DNA of 64,000 nt, from positions 11,047 to 75,046 of the forward strand of contig CAYZTB010000009.1 of NCBI GenBank assembly GCA_964481195.1, read 5' to 3'. Positions 2,360 to 60,694 of this stretch are shown here, piece after piece. The DNA is from an uncultured Bacteroidia bacterium. GTDB lineage: Bacteria > Bacteroidota > Bacteroidia > Palsa-948. Within the stretch, counting starts at the first letter, position 1. Each line of letters starts with the position of its first letter. The notes beneath the pieces are model-generated. The model did no database searches. It was given only the letters and a program-made list of their open reading frames with translations, and was not told the origin of the DNA. Both the position numbers and the translations under genes were made by a program.

Positions 2360-2869
2360 ATGAAAAAATCAATTCTATTTTTAGCAGTATTTGCCTTACT
2401 TGTTTCTTTTAAGGACAATGAGCGCAAATTACCTTCTGTGGACATAAAAACATTGGATGGTAAAAATGTTAATTCTTCAACCTTCTCCAATGATGGAAAG
2501 CCAATCATTATTAGCTTTTGGGCTACTTGGTGCTCTCCTTGTAAAAAAGAATTAAATGCTATTTCAGACGTATATAGCGAGTGGCAAAAAGAGACAGGCG
2601 TAAAACTTATCGCCATCTCTATTGACGATTCTAAGAGCTCTACCAACGTAGCGCCATATGTAAATAGTAAAGGATGGGAGTATGAAGAATACTTAGATTT
2701 AAACTCGGACTTTAAACGTGCTATGAATGTGAACATGCCCCCACATACTTTCATACTAGATGGTAAAGGAAATATTGTTTGGCAACACGTAGGTTTTAAG
2801 GATGGTGACGAGGAACAATATATTGAGGTTGTTCGAAAAATAATTAAGGGAGAACCTATCGAACATTAA
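2360..2869 (+). CDS. TlpA-family thiol:disulfide oxidoreductase
   Basis: IISFWATWCSPCKKEL motif, signal peptide, PHTFILDGKGNIV. Confidence 0.9.
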   Translation: MKKSILFLAVFALLVSFKDNERKLPSVDIKTLDGKNVNSSTFSNDGKPIIISFWATWCSPCKKELNAISDVYSEWQKETGVKLIAISIDDSKSSTNVAPYVNSKGWEYEEYLDLNSDFKRAMNVNMPPHTFILDGKGNIVWQHVGFKDGDEEQYIEVVRKIIKGEPIEH

Positions 2870-2935
2870 TCTTAATTTTGCTTTTGGATATTATATTGAT
2901 GAATTACTTCATTACTTTTTAGCTTAAGATTTTAT

Positions 2936-4594
2936 ATGAAAAGAGTCATTCTCGTTGCTTATTTTGCTGTTATTTGTATTGTATCTTTTTCTCAAGAAAA
3001 CACTCCGCTAGCTAATAATCAAGGTATTCTACAGGGCAATATGCAAATGGATGCACAATATTATAATCCGGATTCCACCATTGGAGCAGCTCCTGTTCCC
3101 GAAAAAATGTTGATGAACGGTTTCATGAATATTAATTATACCCGCGGTAATTTTAAAGCAGGTATTCGTTACGAAAGTTATTTAAATACCATTCAAGGAT
3201 TTAACCCTAAGTATAAAGGGAATGGAATCCCATATCGATTTGCAACATATACAGCAGATGAATTGGAAGTAACTGCAGGAAATTTTTACGAGCAATTTGG
3301 TAGTGGCTTAGTGCTTCGTACCTACGAAGAGCGGGGTTTGGGTATTGATAATGTATTTGATGGAATACGTTTAAAATATACCATCAAAGGGATTTACATG
3401 AAAGGGCTTATTGGCAAGCAGCGAAGCTACTTTTCTCAAGGACCCGGAATTACCAGAGCTTTTGACACCGAAGTGCAATTAAATGAACTTATCGCTAAGT
3501 GGTCTGAATCTTCTACAAGAATATCTATTGGAGGAAGTTTTGTAAGTAAATATCAGGATGGAGATAAAGTAATTTATTTAACCCACACATTAAACGTTCC
3601 TCAAAACGTAGGCGCTTCTGCAGGAAGAATTTCTATTAACAGAAAAAAGAACAGGCTAATGGCAGAATACGCTTATAAAATTAACGACCCTTCAGCAATA
3701 AATAAATATATTTATAGGCCTGGGGAAGCAATATTATTAAGTTACACATATTCCACCAAAGGATTTGGCTTTTCAATGTCTGGAAAGCGTATCGATAATT
3801 TTTCTTTTAAATCAGATAGAAATGCTACGGGAATTGATGTGGATATGAATTTTTTGCCAGCCTTAAATCGCCAGCATACCTATGCATTAATGGCATTTTA
3901 CCCTTATGCAACTAATCCTAGAGGTGAAATTAGCTATTTAATAGATATTCAGAAAAAAATTAAAAAAGGTTCTAAGCTTGGAGGAAAATATGGAATGGAC
4001 ATTGCAATAAATTATTCCGGAGCAAACGGGCTAGATACAACAACAACAATTCCCGAATATGATTCTACTCGAATTGGGTACACAACCAATCAATTTGCTT
4101 TAGGGGAGGTGTATTATCAGGATGTAAATATTGAGCTAACTAAAAAACTAACTCCAAAACTTAAAATAATGTTGTTGTATTCAAATCAAGTTTATAATAA
4201 AAATGTAATTCAAGGGTTAGCAGGGTATAAAGTTATATACTCCAACATTGCTATGACAGAGATATCCTATAAGATAAATAGCAGCAACTCTGTTCGAATG
4301 GAAATGCAGCACTTAGCTACCAAGCAAGATCAGCAAAGTTGGGCAATGGGCTTAATTGAATTTGGAGCCGGAGAGCATTGGATGATAAGCGTGCAGGATA
4401 TGTATAATTATGCAAATCATAAAACTAAAGAACGATTTCACTATTACAATGCTACGGTAGTTTATATTAAAAGTGGCACTCGTATTGCGCTAGGATATGG
4501 AAGACAACGTGCCGGTATATTTTGTGTAGGTGGAGTTTGCCGGTTTGTTCCTGCTTCTAATGGATTATTGTTAACTGTAACATCAAGCTTTTAA
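2936..4594 (+). CDS. Outer-membrane beta-barrel-like protein (DUF6029-like)
   Basis: Signal peptide, amphipathic beta strands, terminal Phe, C-terminal GIFCVGGVCRFVP motif; lies between tlpA and omp28. Confidence 0.7.
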   Translation: MKRVILVAYFAVICIVSFSQENTPLANNQGILQGNMQMDAQYYNPDSTIGAAPVPEKMLMNGFMNINYTRGNFKAGIRYESYLNTIQGFNPKYKGNGIPYRFATYTADELEVTAGNFYEQFGSGLVLRTYEERGLGIDNVFDGIRLKYTIKGIYMKGLIGKQRSYFSQGPGITRAFDTEVQLNELIAKWSESSTRISIGGSFVSKYQDGDKVIYLTHTLNVPQNVGASAGRISINRKKNRLMAEYAYKINDPSAINKYIYRPGEAILLSYTYSTKGFGFSMSGKRIDNFSFKSDRNATGIDVDMNFLPALNRQHTYALMAFYPYATNPRGEISYLIDIQKKIKKGSKLGGKYGMDIAINYSGANGLDTTTTIPEYDSTRIGYTTNQFALGEVYYQDVNIELTKKLTPKLKIMLLYSNQVYNKNVIQGLAGYKVIYSNIAMTEISYKINSSNSVRMEMQHLATKQDQQSWAMGLIEFGAGEHWMISVQDMYNYANHKTKERFHYYNATVVYIKSGTRIALGYGRQRAGIFCVGGVCRFVPASNGLLLTVTSSF

Positions 4595-9763: not shown

Positions 9764-10918
9764 TTAAATTAATTCGAGAATTTTTTTTCTTGTTTCAATA
9801 TCGGTGTTTATATAATCTTGATACGTTGGATTTTTAATGAACGACACAGAGTTCATACATGTTTCAATTAGTTCGCTCATCTTTAAAAAACTTATTTTAC
9901 CACTTAAAAACTCTTGTACTGCTATTTCATTTGCTGCATTTAAAATACAAGGACTATTCCCTCCCTTTTCCATAGCAATAAAGGCTAGAGCAAGGTTACG
10001 AAAAGTTTCAGTATCAGGCTTTTCAAATGTAAACGATGGATAATCCATGAAATTAAAGCGCTTAAATGAAGATGATATTCTTTTTGGGTATGACAACGCG
10101 TATTGAATAGGAAGTTTCATGTCCGGCAATCCTAATTGAGCTTTCATGCTTCCATCTTTAAACTGAGCGATGGAATGAATAATACTTTGTGGATGCACAA
10201 TTACTTCTATCTGATCTGCTTTTAGATTAAATAGCCACTTGGCTTCAATAACCTCCAAGCCTTTATTCATTAAGGAAGCAGAATCGATGGTGATTTTAGC
10301 CCCCATCTCCCAATTAGGATGCTGCAGGGCTTGCTCTTTTTTAACAGACTCTAAAAATTTCTTGTCCTTACCTCGAAATGGTCCGCCAGAAGCAGTTAAA
10401 TATATTTTTTCAATTGGATTTTCCCATTCTCCTGCCATACACTGGAAAATGGCAGAATGTTCAGAATCTACGGGATAGATATTTACTCCATTTTCTTTAG
10501 CTAACGCAGTTACAAGTTCTCCTGCAACTACTAAAGATTCCTTATTAGCAAGAGCAATATTTTTTTTTGCTTTAATAGCTGCTAGGGTGGAAGCTAAGCC
10601 TGCATATCCAACTATTGCAGCCAGCACTATGTGAATACTATCCATTTGAACTACTTGTTCAACAGATTTATTTCCAGCAAATACTTTTATGTCGTATCTA
10701 CTAAGCGAAGTTTTTACTTGATTGTATTTGCTTTCATCGGCAATGACTACCGCATTAGGTTTGAAAGCTATTGCTTGTTGGATAAGAAGATCTGCATTGC
10801 CATTTGCAGTAAGTACTTCCACAACAAATTTATCAAGATGCTCATTTATTACTTCGAGTGCCTGCGTTCCAATAGAACCGGTTGAGCCTAAAATAGCTAT
10901 GTGTTTTTTGTCGCTCAT
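9764..10918 (-). CDS. dxr: 1-deoxy-D-xylulose-5-phosphate reductoisomerase
   Basis: LGSTGSIG, LANKESLV, PVDSEHSAIFQ, TASGGPF, HPNWEMG, MNKGLEVIEA. Confidence 0.97.
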   Translation of the reverse strand: MSDKKHIAILGSTGSIGTQALEVINEHLDKFVVEVLTANGNADLLIQQAIAFKPNAVVIADESKYNQVKTSLSRYDIKVFAGNKSVEQVVQMDSIHIVLAAIVGYAGLASTLAAIKAKKNIALANKESLVVAGELVTALAKENGVNIYPVDSEHSAIFQCMAGEWENPIEKIYLTASGGPFRGKDKKFLESVKKEQALQHPNWEMGAKITIDSASLMNKGLEVIEAKWLFNLKADQIEVIVHPQSIIHSIAQFKDGSMKAQLGLPDMKLPIQYALSYPKRISSSFKRFNFMDYPSFTFEKPDTETFRNLALAFIAMEKGGNSPCILNAANEIAVQEFLSGKISFLKMSELIETCMNSVSFIKNPTYQDYINTDIETRKKILELI

Positions 10919-11805
10919 CAGAACACAATATATTCTTGTGGGTCAATAGCTTTTCCATTGTACCATAATTCAAAATGCAAATGTGGTCCACTACTTTGTT
11001 CGCCCGAATTTCCTATTACAGCAATGGCTTCTCCGGCTTTCACATACTGTCCGGCTTTTTTTAGTAGCACGGAGTTGTGCTTGTAAGCGGAAACTAAATT
11101 GTTTGAATGTTGTATCTGAATGGTAAATCCAGTTTCTGAAGTCCAGCCCGAAAATAATACGGTTCCATCTAATGTTGCTTTTATGGGTTCGTTTTCTTTT
11201 GCCACTATATCTGTTCCGTAATGTTCTTGATTTGCATTAAAAGAAGATGTTACCGTTCCTTTAACAGGTGTAAAAAAGAAAAAATTACTAATGCTTTCCT
11301 TGCCCGATTTTTTTTCTGAAAAGGTCAAAGAGTATTTGTCTTGTGCTTCAATCTCTGCACGAAAGAGGGAATCTTCTTTGGAAGGCCTGGTGTCAATTGC
11401 CTTTTGATCTTTACTGTTTTTAGTATTTGAATAACCAGCAGATTTATTGTTAAGGCTGTCGTTTCCAATATTTCCACTCATGATATTCATGATGTTTTTC
11501 ATGGCAGCTGAGCTTAGCTCCAATTCATGCTGAAGAGAATCAAATTTTAATGTAAGGCTAACCAGCTCTTTTCTGGTTTTTAGTTCCGATCCATAACCGG
11601 GGATGTATGCTTTCATCGGAGTAAAAGCCACCAAGCTTACCGTTAGTGTTATCATTATTATGGAGATTAAGCCAACCGTAATGAAGATGTTTAATGGGGT
11701 TAGTTTTAATGAAAACTGCTCTTCAAAACTATCGTCATTCATTACTACAAGCCGGTACCTGTTGCGGATTTTACTCCAAAAAGTAGATTTTTTCTTTTCT
11801 TCCAT
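10918..11805 (-). CDS. M23-family peptidase
   Basis: HYGTD and GPHLHFE motifs with an N-terminal TM helix. Start reassigned to MEEKKK (11805) because TATCTTTG lies on the minus strand at 11814-11821. Confidence 0.9.
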   Translation of the reverse strand: MEEKKKSTFWSKIRNRYRLVVMNDDSFEEQFSLKLTPLNIFITVGLISIIMITLTVSLVAFTPMKAYIPGYGSELKTRKELVSLTLKFDSLQHELELSSAAMKNIMNIMSGNIGNDSLNNKSAGYSNTKNSKDQKAIDTRPSKEDSLFRAEIEAQDKYSLTFSEKKSGKESISNFFFFTPVKGTVTSSFNANQEHYGTDIVAKENEPIKATLDGTVLFSGWTSETGFTIQIQHSNNLVSAYKHNSVLLKKAGQYVKAGEAIAVIGNSGEQSSGPHLHFELWYNGKAIDPQEYIVF

Positions 11806-11893
11806 TAGCCCCGCAAAGATATGGTTTTGGGCATACTTCATAGGGAAGTACTCATCAAATTCAGAATAATAATTAGAGGCATTAAAAATATAT

Positions 11894-11923
11894 TTTGTGG
11901 AATCAAAATCCTTTTTACCTTTG
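11894..11923 (+). promoter_or_regulatory. Sigma-A promoter of the sulfate assimilation operon
   Basis: TTTG 11894-11897, 18-nt spacer, TACCTTTG 11916-11923. Confidence 0.75.
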
Positions 11924-11944
11924 CCCCATCATTTAGAAACAACA

Positions 11945-12010
11945 ATGACAAACAATAAGCTCAACACGGTTAATAACGCATACAGCACTTGCTGTATGAT
12001 GTGTATTTAA
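11945..12010 (+). CDS. Cys/Met-rich leader peptide 1 (MTNNKLNTVNNAYSTCCMMCI, 21 aa)
   Basis: Hand translation. A-rich start context; five consecutive Cys/Met codons TGC TGT ATG ATG TGT at 11990-12004. Confidence 0.85.
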   Translation: MTNNKLNTVNNAYSTCCMMCI

Positions 12011-12014
12011 TTGT

Positions 12015-12058
12015 GGAAGAGTTTTAGTTAGTCAATAACGATATAACAAGGCTCTTCC
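12015..12058 (+). promoter_or_regulatory. Antiterminator of attenuator 1
   Basis: GGAAGAGTTTT (12015-12025) pairs with AAGGCTCTTCC (12048-12058), the 5' arm of terminator 1 (11 bp, 2 G-U). Confidence 0.8.
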
Positions 12059-12081
12059 GAAAGGAGGGGCCTTCTTTTTTT
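12048..12081 (+). terminator. Attenuator terminator 1
   Basis: AAGGCTCTTCC-GAAA-GGAGGGGCCTT hairpin (11 bp) followed by C and T7. Confidence 0.9.
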
Positions 12082-12106
12082 GCATCAAACTAATAGATAA
12101 AATAAA

Positions 12107-12208
12107 ATGAAAAATAAAATCAACATTCATACTTCAACCTTAAACATTACCCGTATGTGTATTTGTATGTGCATGTGTAGAGCGAGGGCCTATGCGTTGA
12201 GGTGTTGA
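12107..12208 (+). CDS. Cys/Met-rich leader peptide 2 (MKNKINIHTSTLNITRMCICMCMCRARAYALRC, 33 aa)
   Basis: Hand translation. Seven of eight codons at 12155-12178 are Cys/Met; A-rich start context. Confidence 0.85.
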   Translation: MKNKINIHTSTLNITRMCICMCMCRARAYALRC

Positions 12209-12228
12209 TGAAATTACACTTAAATGTC

Positions 12229-12265
12229 AAAAGCCCTTCCGCAAAAACGCAGAAGGGCTTTTTTT
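12229..12265 (+). terminator. Attenuator terminator 2
   Basis: AAAAGCCCTTC...GAAGGGCTTTT stem running into T7, ending 37 nt before the sir start. GCGAGGGC (12182-12189) can alternatively pair with GCCCTTCCGC. Confidence 0.9.
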
Positions 12266-12302
12266 ATGTCTTTAAACAAAATAATTTAAAAAAATAAATA
12301 CA

Positions 12303-14432
12303 ATGCAATCATTTAGAACAGAATTAGAAAACCCAGTTATAGAAAAAGACATTCTTGATTTAGAGAAAAAAATAATTCTATTTAAGGAAGGTAAAATAGA
12401 TTCAGAAAAATTTAGATCTCTGCGGCTAGCAAGGGGAGTATACGGACAGCGGCAGCAAGGGGTGCAGATGATTCGAATAAAAATCCCACTTGGAAAAATA
12501 ACAGTAAAACAACTTTTGAAAATTGCAGATATATCTGACGAATATTCAAATGGGAACTTACATTTAACTACACGACAAGATGTGCAAATACATTATGTGT
12601 CGCTTGATAAAACGCCAGAGCTATGGGCTAAGCTAGAAAAGGATGATATCACGCTGCGAGAAGCTTGCGGAAACACTGTGCGAAACATCACCGCCTCTTC
12701 TTTTGCGGGGATCGATCCGAAAGAACCATTTGATGTCACTCCCTATGCAGAAGGCTTGTTTCGTTTCTTCCTAAGAAATCCTATACAAGAAAACCTTGGG
12801 AGAAAATTCAAAATTGCTTTTTCGTCAAGCGAAAAGGACACAGCTTTTGTTTTTATTCATGATTTAGGCTTAATTCCAAAGGTTAAAATAATTGAGGGAA
12901 CAATAGTAAAAGGATTCAAGGTTGTAATTGCCGGTGGTCTTGGTGCGCAGCCACAATTGGCACAAATTGCCGATGAGTTTTTGCCAGCTGAATATTTAAT
13001 ACCGTTTGCTGAAGCAGTTGTACGTGTTTTTGATAGATATGGGGAAAGAAACAATCGTCATAAAGCTCGACTAAAATATTTGATAGCGAAGATTGGACTC
13101 GAAGAGTTTCTAAGGTTAGTAAAAGAAGAACGGCTTGCTTTAAAATCTAAGCCATCAGAAATAAAGATACTGCCGCCTGTTTCTGATTATTTTAATCAGG
13201 AAGAAAAAGGGAAAGTGTTTACTACTTTTAAAGTATCGGACACTGCTAATTATTTACAATGGAGAAATTCAAATGTAGTAGAGCAAAAGCAGCAAGGGTT
13301 TTTTGCAGTAGGCGTGCGGGTTCCATTGGGAAATATTCATTCAGATAAAGCACGGCAACTAGCCGATATAGTAAAAAAATATTCCTCTGACGATCTTCGA
13401 ATTACACTGAATCAAGGATTTTTGCTTCGGTTTGTTCCTAAAGATGCATTAGTTACTCTATACAAAGAGTTGAGTGCAATCAACCTTTCTTTAGCAGGCT
13501 TTGATAGCCTTGGCGATATTACAGCTTGCCCGGGTACCGATACTTGTAATCTTGGAATTTCAAACAGCACAGGAATTGCGCTTGAGTTGGAAAAAGTTAT
13601 TCAAAACGAGTATGCTGATTTGCTTTATGAAAAAAACATTAAAATTAAAATCAGTGGCTGCATGAACTCGTGCGGACAACATTCATTGGCGCATATTGGA
13701 TTTCATGGAAGCTCATTAAAATCTGGTTCTCATGTATTACCTGCTTTGCAAGTCCTATTAGGCGGTGGAGTGATTGGAGATGGATCAGGTAAAATATCTG
13801 ATAAAGTAATAAAGGTACCCAGCAAGCGAGGACCTGCTGTGCTACGTACCTTATTAGATGACTACGAGAAACAAAAAAATGGAAGTGAAACATTTAACCA
13901 GTATTATGAAAGAAAAGGCAATAATTATTTCTTTCAATTACTTAGACATCATGCTGATTTATCTACGCTTATTGAAAACGAATACAAAGACTGGGGCTAT
14001 GAAGAATCTTTTAAGCCTTTAATTGGTGTAGGGGAATGTGCCGGTGTTATGATAGATTTAGTAGCCACGTTGTTTTTAGAAGCGCAAGAAAAATTAGACG
14101 CTGCACAAACTGCATTTCAGGAAGACTTATTTGCAGATTCCATTTATCAAAGTTACGGTGCTTTTGTAAATGGAGCCAAAGCACTGTTGTTATCGAAGCA
14201 AATAACAAGTAATACACAACATGGAATACTTAATGAGTTTGATAAACATTTTGTAGCTACAGGTGATTTTGAATTTGAAGGAAAGTTTGTTGAAGAGGTT
14301 TTGGAAATCAATAAAGCAGAGCCAACAAAATCTTTCTCTCAAGCATATTTTTTTAATGCAAAAAAGTTTATCGAGAACATTATTCAAAAGAGAGAAAATC
14401 AATTGAGTCAACAAAATAATGTACTTGCTTAA
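12303..14432 (+). CDS. Siroheme sulfite reductase (NIR/SIR family) with C-terminal HEPN-like domain
   Basis: HLTTRQDVQ, REACGNTVRN, ACPGTDTC and KISGCMNSCGQH siroheme/4Fe-4S ligands; extra ~125-aa C-terminal helical domain; first gene of the cys operon. Confidence 0.9.
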   Translation: MQSFRTELENPVIEKDILDLEKKIILFKEGKIDSEKFRSLRLARGVYGQRQQGVQMIRIKIPLGKITVKQLLKIADISDEYSNGNLHLTTRQDVQIHYVSLDKTPELWAKLEKDDITLREACGNTVRNITASSFAGIDPKEPFDVTPYAEGLFRFFLRNPIQENLGRKFKIAFSSSEKDTAFVFIHDLGLIPKVKIIEGTIVKGFKVVIAGGLGAQPQLAQIADEFLPAEYLIPFAEAVVRVFDRYGERNNRHKARLKYLIAKIGLEEFLRLVKEERLALKSKPSEIKILPPVSDYFNQEEKGKVFTTFKVSDTANYLQWRNSNVVEQKQQGFFAVGVRVPLGNIHSDKARQLADIVKKYSSDDLRITLNQGFLLRFVPKDALVTLYKELSAINLSLAGFDSLGDITACPGTDTCNLGISNSTGIALELEKVIQNEYADLLYEKNIKIKISGCMNSCGQHSLAHIGFHGSSLKSGSHVLPALQVLLGGGVIGDGSGKISDKVIKVPSKRGPAVLRTLLDDYEKQKNGSETFNQYYERKGNNYFFQLLRHHADLSTLIENEYKDWGYEESFKPLIGVGECAGVMIDLVATLFLEAQEKLDAAQTAFQEDLFADSIYQSYGAFVNGAKALLLSKQITSNTQHGILNEFDKHFVATGDFEFEGKFVEEVLEINKAEPTKSFSQAYFFNAKKFIENIIQKRENQLSQQNNVLA

Positions 14433-15317: not shown

Positions 15318-15335
15318 TCTTTGAATATATATATA

Positions 15336-16904
15336 ATGAACACAATTAATGAAAGTTCTACTATGTTAGAAGCCATACCTCGTACTGGTAATAAATTGTT
15401 TCCAATTTTTTTGAAATTGGAGAAACTAAAAGTCCTGATTGTTGGAGGTGGCTTGGTCGCTTTGGAAAAGCTTAAAGCTGTTTTAAATAATAGTCCAGAA
15501 ACAGCAATAGTCCTAATAGCTCCAGATATTATTCCCGAAATAGTTGTGCTAGCTTCTGGCCTGCAAACAATTTCAATCAAGCAACGAGTGTTTTTTCCAG
15601 GCGATTTATACTCGGCAGATCTTGTAATAGCTGCAACTGCCGATTCGGACACAAATAAAATTATTAAATCTGAATCACAGAAGCGAGGCATTTTGGTAAA
15701 CGTAGCTGATACTCCAGAGTTATGTGATTTTTATTTGGGAAGTATTGTGAGTAAAGGAGATTTAAAAATTGCCGTTTCTACCAACGGCAAATCTCCTACC
15801 ATGGCTAAGCGTGTAAAAGAAGTGTTGAATGAATCTTTTCCTCAGGAAACACAAGGCGTATTGGATAATCTGGAAACAATAAGGAAAAAATTGAACGGAG
15901 ATTTTTCCGATAAAGTTAGGAAGCTAAATGAAATTACTGCTGTGCTAGCAATAGAAAACAATTTAGCATCCTTGCAGCCACATATTTCGGTAGAACATGA
16001 AAACGCTAAGCCTCCCTATAAACAAACAAAATACTGGTTACTGTATTCTTTGTCTGCACTAGCTTTAATGATTGTTGGTCATTTATTATTTTCGTTTTTG
16101 CCAGTACCATACATAGGCGAATACATAGGTGATACTGTCGGGAAAATAGATAAAACAATATTGTTTTTTGTATTAGGAGGTTTTTTAGCTCAAATGGTAG
16201 ATGGCGCATTGGGCATGGCTTATGGCGTTACGGCTACTACTTTTTTACTTTCATATGGTATTGGAACTGCATCGGCAGTAGCGAGTGTTAAAGCTTCAGA
16301 AATATTTACCACAGGCGCTTCTGGTCTTATGCATTTGAAATTTAAAAATGTAAATACAAAACTGTTTAGGAGTTTATTATTCCCCGGTATTGTAGGTGCA
16401 ATTATTGGAGCGTATATACTTTCATCGCTAGGTAGTTACACGGATTATTTAAGACCATTTGTTTCTGCATATACATTAATATTAGGTGTAATAATTATTA
16501 GAAAAGCCATTCGTAAAAAAATACAAAAGCAAAAAATAAAGCGAGTCGGTCGGTTAGCATTGATTGGCGGTTTCCTCGATTCCATTGGTGGGGGAGGTTG
16601 GGGACCTATTGTTTCTTCTACTTTAATTGCAAGAGGCAGAGCGTTGCGTTATACTGTAGGATCGGTAAACCTGGCAGAATTTTTTATTACGCTGGCTAGT
16701 TCCATAACTTTTTTTACGCTTATAGGAATTCAACATTGGGATATTATTGTTGGATTAATTATTGGAGGAATGATTGCCTCGCCTTTTGCTGCCTACTTTA
16801 CTTCAAAAATACCAGTTAGAGCAGGGTTGATAACTGTTGGAATCGTAATAATAATTGTTAGTTTAAGAATACTAATAAAAACATATTTGAACCTATGGAC
16901 TTAA
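15336..16904 (+). CDS. Fusion of precorrin-2 dehydrogenase/ferrochelatase (CysG N-terminal part) and a TauE/SafE (TSUP) transporter
   Basis: LIVGGGLVA, VNVADTPELCDF and IAVSTNGKSP, then a multi-TM domain with DGALGMAYG and DSIGGGGWGP. Confidence 0.85.
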   Translation: MNTINESSTMLEAIPRTGNKLFPIFLKLEKLKVLIVGGGLVALEKLKAVLNNSPETAIVLIAPDIIPEIVVLASGLQTISIKQRVFFPGDLYSADLVIAATADSDTNKIIKSESQKRGILVNVADTPELCDFYLGSIVSKGDLKIAVSTNGKSPTMAKRVKEVLNESFPQETQGVLDNLETIRKKLNGDFSDKVRKLNEITAVLAIENNLASLQPHISVEHENAKPPYKQTKYWLLYSLSALALMIVGHLLFSFLPVPYIGEYIGDTVGKIDKTILFFVLGGFLAQMVDGALGMAYGVTATTFLLSYGIGTASAVASVKASEIFTTGASGLMHLKFKNVNTKLFRSLLFPGIVGAIIGAYILSSLGSYTDYLRPFVSAYTLILGVIIIRKAIRKKIQKQKIKRVGRLALIGGFLDSIGGGGWGPIVSSTLIARGRALRYTVGSVNLAEFFITLASSITFFTLIGIQHWDIIVGLIIGGMIASPFAAYFTSKIPVRAGLITVGIVIIIVSLRILIKTYLNLWT

Positions 16905-17596
16905 ATATTCTATCTAAAATCAACTCTGAGGTTTCAGGAAAAACTCCTTTAGCTGCGTTGACTGCAATTTCGAAAAATGAAGGAGTAGTTTTTTCTACCA
17001 GCTTTGGATTGGAGGATCAAGTTATGACCCACTTAATTTTTTCCAACAACCTGCCCATAAAAATTTTTACGCTGGATACAGGTAGATTGTTTCCTGAGAC
17101 CTATTCAGTTTGGAGCCGTACCAAAGAAATGTATAGTAAAGAAATACATGCGTATTCTCCAAATGAAAACTTAATTCAAGAGTTAATCTCTAAAAAGGGC
17201 CCCAACAGTTTTTATGAATCTGTAGAAAATAGATTGGAATGTTGCCATATCCGAAAAGTGGAACCTTTGCAACGAGCATTAAAAGGAAATTCTATTTGGA
17301 TAACCGGCATTCGTAAGGAACAATCGAATGCAAGGGGTGGCATTTCTTCTCTTGAATGGGATGATGTTAACAGTATCGTAAAATTTCATCCTTTGTTTGA
17401 TTGGAGTATGAATGAGGTAAAGAAATTTATTTCTGAAAACAATATTCCATACAACGCATTGCACGATAAAGGATTTCCAAGTATTGGTTGTCAGCCATGT
17501 ACGAGAGCAGTAAAAGAAGGAGAGGATGCCCGTGCAGGCCGTTGGTGGTGGGAGCAGAACAACAAAAAAGAATGTGGATTACATATACATAAATAG
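16895..17596 (+). CDS. cysH: Adenylyl-sulfate (APS/PAPS) reductase
   Basis: STSFGLED, LDTG, ECCHIRKVEPL, SIGCQPCT, KECGLH. Confidence 0.95.
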   Translation: MDLNILSKINSEVSGKTPLAALTAISKNEGVVFSTSFGLEDQVMTHLIFSNNLPIKIFTLDTGRLFPETYSVWSRTKEMYSKEIHAYSPNENLIQELISKKGPNSFYESVENRLECCHIRKVEPLQRALKGNSIWITGIRKEQSNARGGISSLEWDDVNSIVKFHPLFDWSMNEVKKFISENNIPYNALHDKGFPSIGCQPCTRAVKEGEDARAGRWWWEQNNKKECGLHIHK

Positions 17597-17603
17597 AAAA
17601 ATA

Positions 17604-18512
17604 ATGAAATACAAAAAATTAGATTATTTAGATCAACTAGAGTCTGAATCTATTCATATACTTCGAGAAGTGGCAGGTCAATTTGAACGACCCGCGTTGC
17701 TTTTTTCGGGAGGAAAAGATTCTATTACGCTTGTACATTTGGCATTAAAAGCTTTTCGTCCGGGCAAGTTTCCTTTTCCGCTCGTTCATATTGATACGGA
17801 GCATAATTTCCCTGAGGCAATTGAGTTTAGAGACAAACTAGCAAAGCAAATTGGCGAACGATTAATTGTTCGCAGTGTAGCGGATACCATAAAACAAAAA
17901 GGCTTGATTGAAAAACCTGGGCGATTTTACAGCAGGAACGCTTTGCAAACCCATACTTTACTTGAGACTATTGAAGAGTTTAAGTTTGATGCCTGCATTG
18001 GTGGAGCTCGTAGAGATGAAGAAAAGGCTAGAGCGAAGGAGCGTGTATTTTCTGTACGAGATGAATTTGGGCAGTGGAACCCTAAAAAACAAAGACCCGA
18101 ACTTTGGGGTCATTACAATGGAAGAATTAGCCAAGGTGAAAATGTTCGTGTTTTTCCTATTAGTAACTGGACCGAGTTGGATGTATGGAATTATATTAAG
18201 CGAGAGAAGATTGAACTACCATCCATCTATTTTTCTCATAAACGAAACTGTGTTATCAGGCCCGGTGGTTTACTGGCATTAACCGATTTTGTCTATACCG
18301 ATTCGCTGGATAAAATTGAAGAACGGACAGTTCGCTTTCGTACGGTGGGCGATGCTACGTGTACCGCTGCTGTTGAGTCCGAAGCAGAATCATTGGATGA
18401 CATCATTCGTGAAATTGAATTAACTAAAATAAGTGAACGAGGAGCTACTCGTTTAGATGACCAAACTTCGGAAGCGGCAATGGAGGACAGAAAGAAAGGA
18501 GGATATTTTTAA
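17604..18512 (+). CDS. cysD: Sulfate adenylyltransferase subunit 2
   Basis: LFSGGKDS, GARRDEEKARAKER, RFRTVGD, terminal GYF. Start reassigned to MKYKK (17604). Confidence 0.96.
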   Translation: MKYKKLDYLDQLESESIHILREVAGQFERPALLFSGGKDSITLVHLALKAFRPGKFPFPLVHIDTEHNFPEAIEFRDKLAKQIGERLIVRSVADTIKQKGLIEKPGRFYSRNALQTHTLLETIEEFKFDACIGGARRDEEKARAKERVFSVRDEFGQWNPKKQRPELWGHYNGRISQGENVRVFPISNWTELDVWNYIKREKIELPSIYFSHKRNCVIRPGGLLALTDFVYTDSLDKIEERTVRFRTVGDATCTAAVESEAESLDDIIREIELTKISERGATRLDDQTSEAAMEDRKKGGYF

Positions 18513-18539: not shown

Positions 18540-19799
18540 ATGGACTTACTAAGATTTTTAACAGCAGGAAATGTGGATGATGGGAAAAGTACTTTGATAG
18601 GACGATTGCTATATGATAGTGGCTCTGTATCGACAGATATTTTACAAGCAATTGAAAAAGCAAGCAAAGGGAAAAATAGTTCTGGTATTGACCTTTCGCT
18701 TCTTACCGATGGATTGAGAGCCGAGCGCGAGCAAGGAATTACTATTGATGTGGCTTATAAGTATTTTACCACACCCAAACGCAAATTTATTATTGCTGAT
18801 ACTCCTGGCCATGTGCAGTACACGCGCAACATGGTTACAGGAGCATCAAATTCAGATCTGGCAATTATTTTAATAGATGCACGTAATGGCATTTCAGAAC
18901 AAACTAGCAGACATTCTATCATTTCAACTTTGTTTGGAATTCGGCATTTAGTAGTCTGTGTAAATAAAATTGATTTGATGGATTATTCCCAGCAAGTGTT
19001 TGATGACATAGTTCGGGCGTACAAAGAATTTATAATTAAGATTAATCCTGAAGAGAATAATGAAAAAAGATATGACATCGTTTTTATTCCGGTTAGCGCT
19101 AAACTAGGCGATAACGTGGTAACACGCTCCCAGAAAATGCCTTGGTACACTGAAAAAACTTTGTTGGAGCATTTGGAGTCTGTAGAAGTAGATACAGATA
19201 CCAATTTGACTAACGCTAGATTTCCTGTGCAATACGTAATACGACCACAGCAAGATGACTTACACGATTACCGTGGCTATGCAGGTAAAATAATAAGCGG
19301 TACATTTAAAAAAGGCGATGCTGTAGAAGTTTTACCAGCCGGAATTTCATCACGTATCAAGGAAGTAGAAATATATGGGTCTTCGGTAGAAGAGGCCTAT
19401 GCTTCTCAATCTGTAATTTTACATCTCGAAGACGATGTAGATATTAGCAGGGGAGATGTGATAGTGAAAAATGACAAGGAGCTTTCTGTTACACAAGACC
19501 TTGAGGCAACAGTGTGTTGGATGAGTGAACGTTCATTACGTGTTGGTTCAAAGTTTCTAATCCAACAACATGGGAAAATTGTAAAAGCTGCTGTGAAAGA
19601 AGTTCTACATAAAATTAATGTAAATACCTTCGACAAAGTAGAAGGCGATAAGGTTGTTGCTCTGAATGAAATTGCTAAACTAAAACTACGTACGGCTTCA
19701 CCTATGGTGATTGATACGTTTCAGAAAAATAAAGCTAACGGAAGCTTTATATTAATAGATGAGAATACACACGAAACTGTTGGAGGTTGTGTAGTCTGA
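18540..19799 (+). CDS. cysN: Sulfate adenylyltransferase subunit 1 (GTPase), no fused APS kinase
   Basis: GNVDDGKSTLIGRLL, EREQGITIDVAY, DTPGH, NKID. Confidence 0.96.
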   Translation: MDLLRFLTAGNVDDGKSTLIGRLLYDSGSVSTDILQAIEKASKGKNSSGIDLSLLTDGLRAEREQGITIDVAYKYFTTPKRKFIIADTPGHVQYTRNMVTGASNSDLAIILIDARNGISEQTSRHSIISTLFGIRHLVVCVNKIDLMDYSQQVFDDIVRAYKEFIIKINPEENNEKRYDIVFIPVSAKLGDNVVTRSQKMPWYTEKTLLEHLESVEVDTDTNLTNARFPVQYVIRPQQDDLHDYRGYAGKIISGTFKKGDAVEVLPAGISSRIKEVEIYGSSVEEAYASQSVILHLEDDVDISRGDVIVKNDKELSVTQDLEATVCWMSERSLRVGSKFLIQQHGKIVKAAVKEVLHKINVNTFDKVEGDKVVALNEIAKLKLRTASPMVIDTFQKNKANGSFILIDENTHETVGGCVV

Positions 19800-19812
19800 A
19801 AGTTTAAGTCAT

Positions 19813-19850
19813 AAAAAAAAGGCGAATCAATTTTGATTCGCCTTTTTTTT
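19813..19850. terminator. Bidirectional intrinsic terminator
   Basis: A8-GGCGAATCAA-TT-TTGATTCGCC-T8 between convergent genes. Confidence 0.92.
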
Positions 19851-19864
19851 AAAATAATATTTTA

Positions 19865-20308
19865 TTATTGTTTGAATCCTACAAGGATAGAAACACATCC
19901 ACTAGGCACTAGTCCAGAAGGAGTATCCACGTTTGGAACAATAACTTCCAAAGTCATTTGTTGAGTTGATTCAACTGAGAAATCCCAATAGTCAAACTTT
20001 CCCATGTCTTTGCTTGTAAAAAGTTGCGTTTTAGCCGCATCTTTCATTACAAAATATACATCGCCTAATGATTCATGAGCAGAAACTAAAATACGATAGG
20101 TCTGGCCTGAATAAAAAGTTAGTGTTAGTTCAGCCTGATCTCCTGAAAGAAGTACGGAGCTGTTTACTTGTCCATTATGAATAAATGGTGCAAGGCTTGA
20201 AATTTGCTTTTTCACAAACCCTTTACATTGTGCAAAGGCTCCGATTGATGGAAGAAGTGCTAATGCAACAATTACAACAAGTCTTCCTGGATTTAAAAAG
20301 TTTTTCAT
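19865..20308 (-). CDS. Uncharacterised secreted protein (paralog of 42429-42881)
   Basis: Signal peptide ending AFA-QC; C-terminal GCVSILVGFK. Confidence 0.75.
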   Translation of the reverse strand: MKNFLNPGRLVVIVALALLPSIGAFAQCKGFVKKQISSLAPFIHNGQVNSSVLLSGDQAELTLTFYSGQTYRILVSAHESLGDVYFVMKDAAKTQLFTSKDMGKFDYWDFSVESTQQMTLEVIVPNVDTPSGLVPSGCVSILVGFKQ

Positions 20309-59682: not shown

Positions 59683-59716
59683 AAAAAAATCCTTGTTTTC
59701 TTAGAACAAGGATTTT
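59683..59716 (-). terminator. Intrinsic terminator (minus strand)
   Basis: AAAATCCTTGTT / AACAAGGATTTT stem with a T run on the minus strand. Confidence 0.75.
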
Positions 59717-59734
59717 AGAAAATGAGAATTGAAT

Positions 59735-60694
59735 TTATTTGCTAATAGTAAACTTTCCAGACCTAAGTGATGCGCCATCAACGTTATTTAAGCTATAGGA
59801 ATATACACCCGATACTAAGTTTGTAGTTTGTAATGTCCAGGTTTTTAGTTTTAATGGATGAGATTGATCAACTTGGGTAGAAGAAATAACTTCTCTGCCC
59901 ATCACATCAAAAACTATAACCGACACACTTTCCAATGCATCGGAAGTAATTGAAATGTGATCGGTTGCAGGATTAGGGTAAACGATAACACCACTAGAAG
60001 AGGAATGTTCGTTTACGTTGTTGTACCCAGAAAAGGACAAGTCATCTACCCAAAGTGTACTTCCGGCAACACCACAAGTGTTGGTAGCTAAGCAGGATGC
60101 GCTGAATCCAAGTATCATAGAGTCCGGAATAACAGTTGAGAACGTAGGGTCATAGGTTAGGGTAAAAGTAGATAGTGTATAAGCAGATGCAGCTGTTTTA
60201 ATTACAATACCACCAATTGCAATGGTATCTCTTTTTGCACCATTCCATTTAGTAAGGACCACTCCGCAAGAAGCGCTATCACTTGCCATTGGAGTATATT
60301 TATGCCAAAAGGTACAGGTTGTAGGTCTAGCAGTATATGGAAATCCGGATATAAGTTTTAAAGGAGATAGTTGCACTTTCCCAACAAATGCAACGCCAGT
60401 AGGATCAGGTAATTGTCCGCCCGAAGGATCATTAACAACGTCAACCGTAACTATTTTCATAGCGTAAGTTCCTCCATGGGCTTCGGTGCCAGTTACTTTA
60501 AATACCGAGGTGCTATTTCCTGGAGAAACAAAAGAAACAAGCTGATTTCCGGTTACCCAATTGGTAGGCTCTTCAGGAACGGATATTGTACCATTATTCA
60601 TGGTTGTCCAACTTTCAAAATCCATAGTTGGGTTTTGTGCGAATGCGCAAAAGCTAGTTCCGGCAGCAATAATTGAGAGTAAAAGTTTTTTCAT
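59735..60694 (-). CDS. Secreted protein with putative carbohydrate-binding (PCMD-like) domain and T9SS type A sorting domain
   Basis: NPTMDFESW...PYTARP...GSTLWVDDLSF; VYPNPA...SGVYSY; promoter TATCTTTG on the complement of 60717-60724. Confidence 0.75.
   Translation of the reverse strand: MKKLLLSIIAAGTSFCAFAQNPTMDFESWTTMNNGTISVPEEPTNWVTGNQLVSFVSPGNSTSVFKVTGTEAHGGTYAMKIVTVDVVNDPSGGQLPDPTGVAFVGKVQLSPLKLISGFPYTARPTTCTFWHKYTPMASDSASCGVVLTKWNGAKRDTIAIGGIVIKTAASAYTLSTFTLTYDPTFSTVIPDSMILGFSASCLATNTCGVAGSTLWVDDLSFSGYNNVNEHSSSSGVIVYPNPATDHISITSDALESVSVIVFDVMGREVISSTQVDQSHPLKLKTWTLQTTNLVSGVYSYSLNNVDGASLRSGKFTISK

Follow-up and report, generated by a model that had tools for sequence, protein, structure and literature searches.

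The 5' leader of a sulfate-assimilation operon in an uncultured Bacteroidia bacterium very probably contains a functional leader-peptide attenuator in which the ribosome responds to cysteine and methionine, and which would be the first of two such devices in series. The argument draws on the anatomy of the element, the mutual exclusivity of its hairpins, its conservation and its association with sulfur genes, together with a modelled effect of the ribosome footprint. All positions refer to the window, the whole stretch of 64,000 nucleotides that was analysed. The parts of the first attenuator on which the argument depends are:

11945 to 12010, plus strand: leader ORF 1; all 36 elements have a homologous ORF, 19-28 codons long
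11990 to 12004, plus strand: control codons TGC TGT ATG ATG TGT (Cys Cys Met Met Cys), read from the sequence
12015 to 12025, plus strand: region 2, the antiterminator 5' arm GGAAGAGTTTT, beginning 4 nt past the leader stop
12048 to 12058, plus strand: region 3, the shared arm AAGGCTCTTCC, partner of either region 2 or region 4
12063 to 12073, plus strand: region 4, the terminator 3' arm GGAGGGGCCTT, preceded by a GAAA loop at 12059-12062
12075 to 12081, plus strand: run of seven T completing intrinsic terminator 1, from the sequence and a terminator scan

Leader ORF 1 has 21 codons followed by a TAA stop (12008-12010), and its product, read from the sequence, is MTNNKLNTVNNAYSTCCMMCI. The last six sense codons specify Cys Cys Met Met Cys Ile, five of which are the control codons. 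A terminal run rich in Cys and Met is found in 36 of 36 elements, 35 of them with Cys codons; the remaining one (L212), located 5' of a homoserine dehydrogenase gene, has one Cys and four Met codons, both codons of the Cys-Cys pair having been replaced so that the leader ends in MMGRMMCF. Variants of the run include MMCCMMCA, MCCMICI, MCCICS, PCCMMCC, MMCCCMCYLIC, CCTMCCTCCAL, and CCCCAFLWRG. Homologs also vary synonymously between TGC and TGT at the control codons, and the N-terminal two thirds of the peptide is not conserved among them. A filter for Cys/Met richness passes 11 short ORFs across the entire 3.19-Mb genome, and a terminator lies 3' only of the two leaders described here. The leader thus appears, from its sequence, to have the short ORF and the cluster of end-product codons that characterize a classical attenuator.

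The region downstream of the stop codon can fold in two ways. Regions 2 and 3, GGAAGAGTTTT and AAGGCTCTTCC, pair over 11 positions (nine Watson-Crick and two G-U), while regions 3 and 4, AAGGCTCTTCC and GGAGGGGCCTT, pair over 11 positions across the GAAA loop and are followed by a C and the seven T (12074-12081). An earlier note on this DNA had proposed an 11-bp antiterminator (12015-12025 with 12048-12058) 4 nt past the stop and, exclusive with it, an 11-bp GAAA-capped terminator with a T-run; both lie where it had placed them, the antiterminator exceeding chance and the terminator being recovered by the terminator scan. The antiterminator duplex has an energy of -16.7 kcal/mol. When the post-stop segment was shuffled 2000 times, no shuffle matched this value; among 9126 other 28-nt stretches taken from the window, 2 did. 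For the complete 146-nt leader the folding energy is -52.2 kcal/mol (z = -7.4; equalled by 0 of 200 shuffles). The terminator scan flags 12048-12073 and 11979-11998, and finds four terminator-like sites in 1.2 kb versus 0.8 expected. The hairpin at 11979-11998 was rejected as a terminator in its own right because the tract that trails it, ATGTGTATTT, is a poor U-run and lies within the ORF. In the model alignment, which was fitted to this structure, 98.7% of cells in the terminator columns are paired and 9 of 11 pairs have changed on both sides. By sequence, then, a predicted intrinsic terminator separates the leader ORF from the first structural gene, and the candidate antiterminator shares an arm with it.

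Relatives of the element were collected in several ways. Of 462 loci related through the sulfite reductase gene (sir), 80 were kept, from Sphingobacteriales, Chitinophagales, Cytophagales, unclassified Bacteroidia, and Ignavibacteria; by a crude filter, about 30 of the 80 have a Cys/Met-rich short ORF within 700 nt 5' of sir. A covariance model, R1, was built from 11 leader-1-type elements and gives 22 matches at E < 1e-5 in the window and 21 loci; 21 of the matches are distinct (L006 and L009 are the same). The element is located approximately 1.1-1.7 kb 5' of sir in 11 of these loci, with one other gene in between in the case of L004. The order to which the window belongs is represented by 10 genomes, and R1 matches at E <= 0.001 occur in five, including the window's own. 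Three further genomes of the same genus have a clear homolog of the first attenuator and one has a leader of the second type alone; four of eight other genomes of the genus have no R1 match, which does not imply absence, as the scoring covered 150 of about 2400-3500 candidates per genome. When the class was sampled evenly, R1 matches were present in 17 of 151 genomes and 13 of 100 genera (E <= 1e-4).

The class sample contributed 14 new loci, of which 12 were kept, making 36 elements in all; L211 was dropped as the same element as L008, and L224, with a terminator and no leader ORF, as a false positive. A metagenome scan with a 16-letter degenerate pattern of Cys/Met codons matched at least 120 stretches. 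Among the matches listed, 80 metagenome loci (L091-L170) are almost all due to chance, and one of the 80 (L112) has an R1 match. Weak R1 matches in the window at 19814-19972 (minus strand), 19726-19849 (plus strand), and 59683-59837 (minus strand), and four weak matches elsewhere in the genome, lack the combination of a Cys/Met short ORF and a terminator and were taken as plain terminators. The first gene 3' of the 12 class-level elements is a sulfite reductase in seven cases, a homoserine dehydrogenase in two, and an APS kinase in one; the two remaining elements precede a Glu/Leu-type dehydrogenase and a 1-Cys peroxiredoxin, which have no obvious link to sulfur. That 10 of the 12 stand before genes for sulfur amino acids fits the sensing of cysteine and methionine.

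A segment at the leader stop pairs with the 5' arm of the terminator in all 36 elements, over 6-11 bp and with energies from -6.3 to -17.6 kcal/mol. In 31 elements the segment begins 0-8 nt past the stop, in the other five it overlaps the end of the ORF, and the median gap is 4 nt. The arm itself is variable, with 18 different 8-mers among the 36 elements, and the partner follows the arm; examples are GGAAAGCC with GGCTTTCC, GGAAGAG with CTCTTCC, GAAAGAC with GTCTTTC, GAAAGGCC with GGCCTTTC, and GAGAGG with CCTCTC. When partners are permuted, none of 20000 permutations reaches the observed total energy in either the 24-element or the 36-element set, a test that is inflated by relatedness; the genus has the window's type of pairing in common, which was counted as a single event. 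After shuffling, post-stop segments pair as well in 41 of 4800 trials. Column by column on the model alignment, 91.6% of antiterminator cells pair versus 26-70% when the arms are slid, 17 of the 21 sequences share one type of antiterminator pair, and 19-85 of 500 shuffles do as well on the covariation measures; these column-based counts are blurred by four sequences that are shifted by one column. Covariation in homologous leaders, a check named in the earlier note, is found in part: compensated pairings over 18 arm variants are seen throughout, but covariation within columns is weak. A loss of complementarity in homologs, which the same note had regarded as fatal to the proposed switch, is not seen in any of the 36. 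On the sequences compared, the candidate antiterminator, which shares the terminator arm, is kept in relatives, with modest column-wise covariation.

The range of leaders and downstream genes may point to something broader. It is conceivable, and to us a rather speculative idea, that Bacteroidia possess a retunable attenuator scaffold in which a hairpin has the control codons as its 3' arm and the antiterminator arm abuts the stop, governing both the supply of sulfide (sir, cysC) and the methionine branch (homoserine dehydrogenase). Specificity would be reset by swapping Cys and Met codons, and two differently built copies in series would provide a steep gate with a dual input, cysteine and methionine.

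The surroundings of the first attenuator include a candidate promoter, a second attenuator, and the operon:

11894 to 11897, plus strand: candidate -33 promoter element TTTG, 18 nt 5' of the -7 box and similar in homologs
11916 to 11923, plus strand: candidate Bacteroidota-type -7 box TAccTTTG, 22 nt before the leader ATG
12107 to 12208, plus strand: leader ORF 2 of the second attenuator, product MKNKINIHTSTLNITRMCICMCMCRARAYALRC, Cys/Met-rich and different from ORF 1
12229 to 12269, plus strand: terminator 2 with its T-run, the stem occupying 12229-12262
12303 to 14432, plus strand: ferredoxin-type sulfite reductase, from Pfam matches, the first regulated gene

Of 22 homologous elements, 21 have a TAnnTTTG motif 16-36 nt 5' of the leader ATG, and we take the TAccTTTG at 11916-11923, together with the TTTG at -33, to represent the consensus of Bacteroides and Flavobacterium promoters. 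The upstream neighbour is an M23 peptidase gene on the minus strand (10918-11841), leaving a divergent intergenic gap of 460 nt; a plus-strand terminator in this gap can therefore act solely on the downstream transcript, and no upstream gene needs one. The next gene after leader ORF 1, that for sulfite reductase, lies 220 nt beyond terminator 1 and is followed, according to Pfam, by uroporphyrinogen methylase, a siroheme-synthase/TauE fusion, and PAPS reductase, an operon that can be written sir-cobA-cysG/tauE-cysH. Further ORFs are present downstream of PAPS reductase at 17526-18512 and 18540-19799. Among the sequencing runs consulted, none of RNA covers 11850-12950, and contigs from four DNA runs yielded fragments with no informative variants. 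In the second attenuator the candidate antiterminator arm (12182-12189) is inside leader ORF 2. No TAnnTTTG box is seen in the sequence between terminator 1 and leader ORF 2, and without a promoter box between them the two attenuators would both act in series.

Small Cys-rich peptides exist, and with a plausible promoter ORF 1 could be read as encoding a functional micropeptide that has its own terminator and is upstream of the operon by coincidence. Several features make this the least probable of the readings considered here, with next to no weight in our assessment: the unconserved N-terminal two thirds of the peptide, the presence of a second, different Cys/Met ORF in tandem, an antiterminator that would serve no purpose, and the tie of the element to genes for sulfur amino acids in 10 of 12 independent class-level cases and in all sir-anchored loci.

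The control codons are themselves part of an RNA structure, of which two levels can be distinguished:

11979 to 11998, plus strand: apical hairpin CATACAGC/ACTT/GCTGTATG, a perfect 8-bp stem with a 4-nt loop
11946 to 12034, plus strand: P1, a leader-long hairpin, from the minimum-energy fold

The 8-bp hairpin over the Cys-Cys-Met codons had been pointed out in the earlier note, and it is indeed there; its 3' arm is TGC-TGT-ATG (11990-11998). The 64-kb window has 24 perfect 8-bp hairpins, and about 0.025 are expected per 66-nt ORF. The Cys-Cys codons are paired with upstream bases in 31 of 36 elements (on average 4.8 of 6 nt, versus 3.3 in shuffles), and one pair of the hairpin covaries with the first Cys codon, being G-C with TGC in 15 sequences and A-U with TGT in five; the hairpin over the Cys codons is therefore conserved. 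It is not isolated, as it is predicted to cap P1, which would span the whole leader ORF. In the minimum-energy fold, 11976-11978 pair with 12000-12002 at the base of the apical stem, a middle helix joins 11965-11973 to 12007-12015 and includes the stop codon, and lower helices join 11957-11962 to 12019-12024, 11951-11953 to 12027-12029, and 11946-11949 to 12031-12034. P1 alone has an energy of -32.7 kcal/mol (z = -5.7), and a similar shape is predicted in all 21 distinct homologs, with z from -0.7 to -6.4 and 19 of 21 at or below -2. A MAFFT alignment analysed with RNAalifold recovered the apical hairpin and the terminator and no other helix; the middle and lower helices were missed because of register shifts between homologs, and these helices were consequently scored per sequence.

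In the predicted fold, the lower helices of P1 take up some of the antiterminator arm and of the flank 3' of it. This pairing would correspond to the protector element (1:2) of classical attenuators, and it is modestly supported, being weakly above chance: it occurs in 24 of 24 minimum-energy folds, with a mean of 9.8 paired nt versus 6.7 when the 5' part is shuffled, and for individual sequences from 1 to 71 of 100 shuffles equal the pairing of region 2 and its flank. Early in the ORF, four elements (G005, G008, L005, and L058) have a near-copy of region 3, which pairs with region 2. The apical hairpin may pause RNA polymerase, as the earlier note had supposed, may slow the ribosome, or may merely nucleate the long hairpin.

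The effect of the ribosome was modelled by cutting the transcript before region 4 and forbidding pairing from -15 to +12 or +15 nt relative to the first base of the A site, corresponding to footprints of 28-31 nt. The probability of the antiterminator without a ribosome is 0.96 in the window, with a mean of 0.79 over 21 sequences. A stall at the first Cys codon gives 0.97 in the window (mean 0.81 over the 21), and values are 0.97-0.99 in the window for every A-site position up to 11999. For the final control codon, which is at 12002 in the window, the probability is 0.99 with the shorter footprint and 0.71 with the longer (mean 0.78 over the 21), and with the A site at 12005 it is 0.71 and 0.40. 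With the ribosome at the stop codon, it falls to 0.38 (+12) or 0.01 (+15) in the window and to a mean of 0.13 over the 21 sequences. Constrained folding thus agrees with the statement of the earlier note that a ribosome at the stop masks 12015-12025 and a stalled one leaves it free (0.38-0.01 versus 0.97-0.99), and in these models the geometry is that of a classical attenuator, in which a stall would free the arm and a ribosome at the stop codon would cover it. On the full-length leader at equilibrium, the terminator state is favoured at every ribosome position (-51.7 versus -43.1 kcal/mol), with a terminator probability of about 1 in all ribosome states. Since the terminator is always the more stable structure on the full-length RNA, the decision to read through would be kinetic, as it is in classical attenuators.

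The antiterminator forms in the equilibrium model even when free of a ribosome, and alternative hairpins alone do not prove that the ribosome is the sensor. The same structures could belong to a riboswitch or to a switch controlled by a protein or tRNA, the short ORF being incidental and not read by ribosomes for the purpose of regulation. This seems highly improbable. At the gathering threshold, Rfam has no match in the whole window, and at a permissive threshold nothing relevant is found in 11400-12700; no conserved structure resembling a ligand pocket is apparent. The best scores for Rfam leader families (Thr_leader, Phe_leader, and others) are 16-23 bits, below the threshold of 55 for membership, and all of these matches are on the second attenuator or the opposite strand. 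Across the 36 elements the ORF, its ATG, its length of 19-28 codons, and the terminal Cys/Met run are always kept while other parts of the peptide vary. The distance from the stop to the antiterminator arm is also fixed, with its median of 4 nt; a fixed distance is needed only by a mechanism that depends on ribosome position, and therefore counts against a switch that operates without one.

For the preferred reading, ribosome-mediated attenuation, the sequence of events would be as follows. Charged tRNA-Cys and tRNA-Met would be sensed in the 5' leader of the operon, on a transcript starting approximately 15 nt before the leader ATG. When both amino acids are ample, the ribosome would reach the stop at 12008-12010 with its footprint over the first 6-9 nt of GGAAGAGTTTT; 12048-12058 would then pair with 12063-12073, and RNA polymerase would terminate at the T-run. 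A ribosome stalled at 11990-12004 would instead leave 12015-12025 bare to capture 12048-12058 on emergence, no terminator would form, and transcription would proceed to the second attenuator and then the operon. We infer from the layout that the ORF is translated and that ribosomes stall within it, and likewise the kinetics of the decision and any role of the hairpin in pausing.

A different use of the same peptide would be nascent-peptide arrest of the TnaC type, in which a free metabolite causes the terminating ribosome to stall on the C-terminal Cys/Met motif. Such arrest would lengthen the masking of the antiterminator arm and so enforce termination when sulfur amino acids are plentiful; it would explain masking that outlasts normal ribosome release, and in most leader-1-type elements the conserved residues are within 1-2 codons of the stop. 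The motif is not fixed, however, and enrichment in Cys and Met is all that the leaders share, which suits the sensing of codons better than contact with the tunnel. Arrest of this kind is accordingly considered a very poor candidate, and codon sensing remains the favoured interpretation.

The mechanism is textbook ribosome-mediated attenuation and is not new. What is particular here is the mixed Cys/Met run immediately before the stop, the antiterminator arm that abuts the stop, and the tandem arrangement with a second attenuator that is built differently. The regulation of sulfate assimilation in Bacteroidota is poorly known, and the phylum is not known to use the proteobacterial CysB system. 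A conserved leader that senses cysteine and methionine, if the interpretation is true, would supply the missing regulator of a central pathway in Bacteroidota. The element would also point to short ORFs overlooked in genome annotation, and would give a phylum that has few genetic parts a compact, ligand-free sensor of cysteine and methionine.

Among known systems, the enterobacterial leader-peptide attenuators trpL, hisL, thrL, leuL, and pheL are the classical examples, and thrL mixes Thr and Ile codons. The element described here resembles them in having a short ORF with end-product codons and a mutually exclusive antiterminator and terminator; a ribosome at the stop would cover the antiterminator arm in the same way, and the mixed run of codons is comparable to that of thrL. 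Unlike the enterobacterial attenuators, it would sense cysteine and methionine, control sulfate assimilation, and operate in Bacteroidota, from a promoter of the TAnnTTTG type and without a Shine-Dalgarno sequence; its control codons are the last before the stop, its 1:2 pairing is weak, and two different attenuators are placed in series.

Leaders with Cys codons have been described in other phyla. Brewer et al. 2021 (PMC8632094) predicted an attenuator, the uORFC-8-2 motif, 5' of cysS in Rhodobacterales. As far as the available part of that description goes, it is similar in that its first stem encloses two tandem Cys codons and a terminator stem with a U-run comes next, and different in phylum and in preceding a tRNA synthetase gene rather than an assimilation operon; no Met codons are mentioned there, it is not in tandem, and it has no sequence relation to the present element, which falls outside the motif. 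In mycobacteria, Cys leader peptides were first predicted by Seliverstov et al. 2005 (PMC1262725), and stalling on leaderless polycysteine short ORFs relieves repression (Canestrari et al., bioRxiv 10.1101/834739); the accessible text of the latter states that no uORF-mediated attenuation had previously been described for cysteine. These ORFs likewise have a run of Cys codons near the end of a short ORF 5' of genes for cysteine and sulfur metabolism. The mycobacterial system, in the portions of these reports that are at hand, uses a leaderless mRNA without an intrinsic terminator, and its output is translational, through sequestration of a downstream ribosome-binding site. The present element is not of this group, having a 5' untranslated region predicted at about 15 nt and a strong terminator and antiterminator.

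For Bacteroidota, the literature searched yielded no leader attenuator of the Cys or Cys/Met type, and the cross-phylum survey of Lopatovskaya et al. 2010 could contain one. Guerin et al. 2021 (PMC9723704) reported leader-peptide attenuators in Flavobacterium psychrophilum, at ilvE and hisG, and the supplementary spreadsheets of that paper, to the extent available, yielded no entry for cysteine, methionine, or sulfite. Unlike the present element, the ilvE and hisG leaders, as presented in the available parts of the paper, sense branched-chain amino acids or histidine. They belong to the same phylum and the same class of device, and the ilvE leader appears to hold two ORFs, each with a terminator, as does the leader of the operon described here.

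The second attenuator of the sulfate-assimilation operon (window 12107-12269), which directly follows attenuator 1, has a geometry unlike that of its neighbor: the control codons lie in the middle of the leader ORF and the candidate antiterminator arm falls within the ORF itself.

Control codons and candidate antiterminator arm of attenuator 2
12155-12178, control codons M C I C M C M C, mid-ORF
12182-12189, candidate antiterminator arm, within leader ORF 2

Leader ORF 2 runs on for nine further codons before its stop codon. When the ribosome footprint was barred from pairing in constrained RNA folding, the arm was predicted to be left free only by stalls at early control codons, a result that is qualitative only because the scan was one base out of frame.

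The control-codon composition of the leaders differs between lineages. Cytophagales-type leaders upstream of the sulfite reductase gene (loci L064 and L061) have much longer pure Cys runs and few Met codons; for example, the leader of a Pontibacter locus has seven Cys in succession.

Homologues of attenuator 1 are also found before other genes. In locus L212 (G075:C11), the leader lies approximately 48 nt upstream of a homoserine dehydrogenase ORF (L212:193-1452, minus strand), has its two Cys codons substituted, and its peptide has the C-terminal end MMGRMMCF; it may be a Met-tuned copy or a decaying one. At loci L221 and L222, leader-1-type elements precede genes for a dehydrogenase of the Glu/Leu/Phe/Val type and for a 1-Cys peroxiredoxin, neither with an obvious connection to sulfur amino-acid synthesis.

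Two proteins of the operon have additional domains or extensions. A single 527-aa ORF (window 15321-16904) combines siroheme-synthase N-terminal domains (Pfam matches to NAD_binding_7 and Sirohm_synth_M) with a membrane domain of the sulfite-exporter family (TauE/SafE), an unusual fusion in this operon. The sulfite reductase (window 12303-14432) has a C-terminal extension of approximately 150 aa, in which residues 590-673 weakly match HEPN (E = 3e-5); relatives of the protein are of the same full length.

A second case of paired tandem Cys/Met leader ORFs, with a terminator after each, occurs on an unrelated metagenome contig (L112:100-536, minus strand). For Flavobacterium psychrophilum ilvE, one leader peptide is annotated by the authors in supplementary spreadsheet 8 of PMC9723704; in our reading, the ilvE 5' region printed there apparently has a pair of Ile-rich leader ORFs, with a terminator-like hairpin downstream of each. 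Tandem leader attenuators may be a recurrent design in Bacteroidota.
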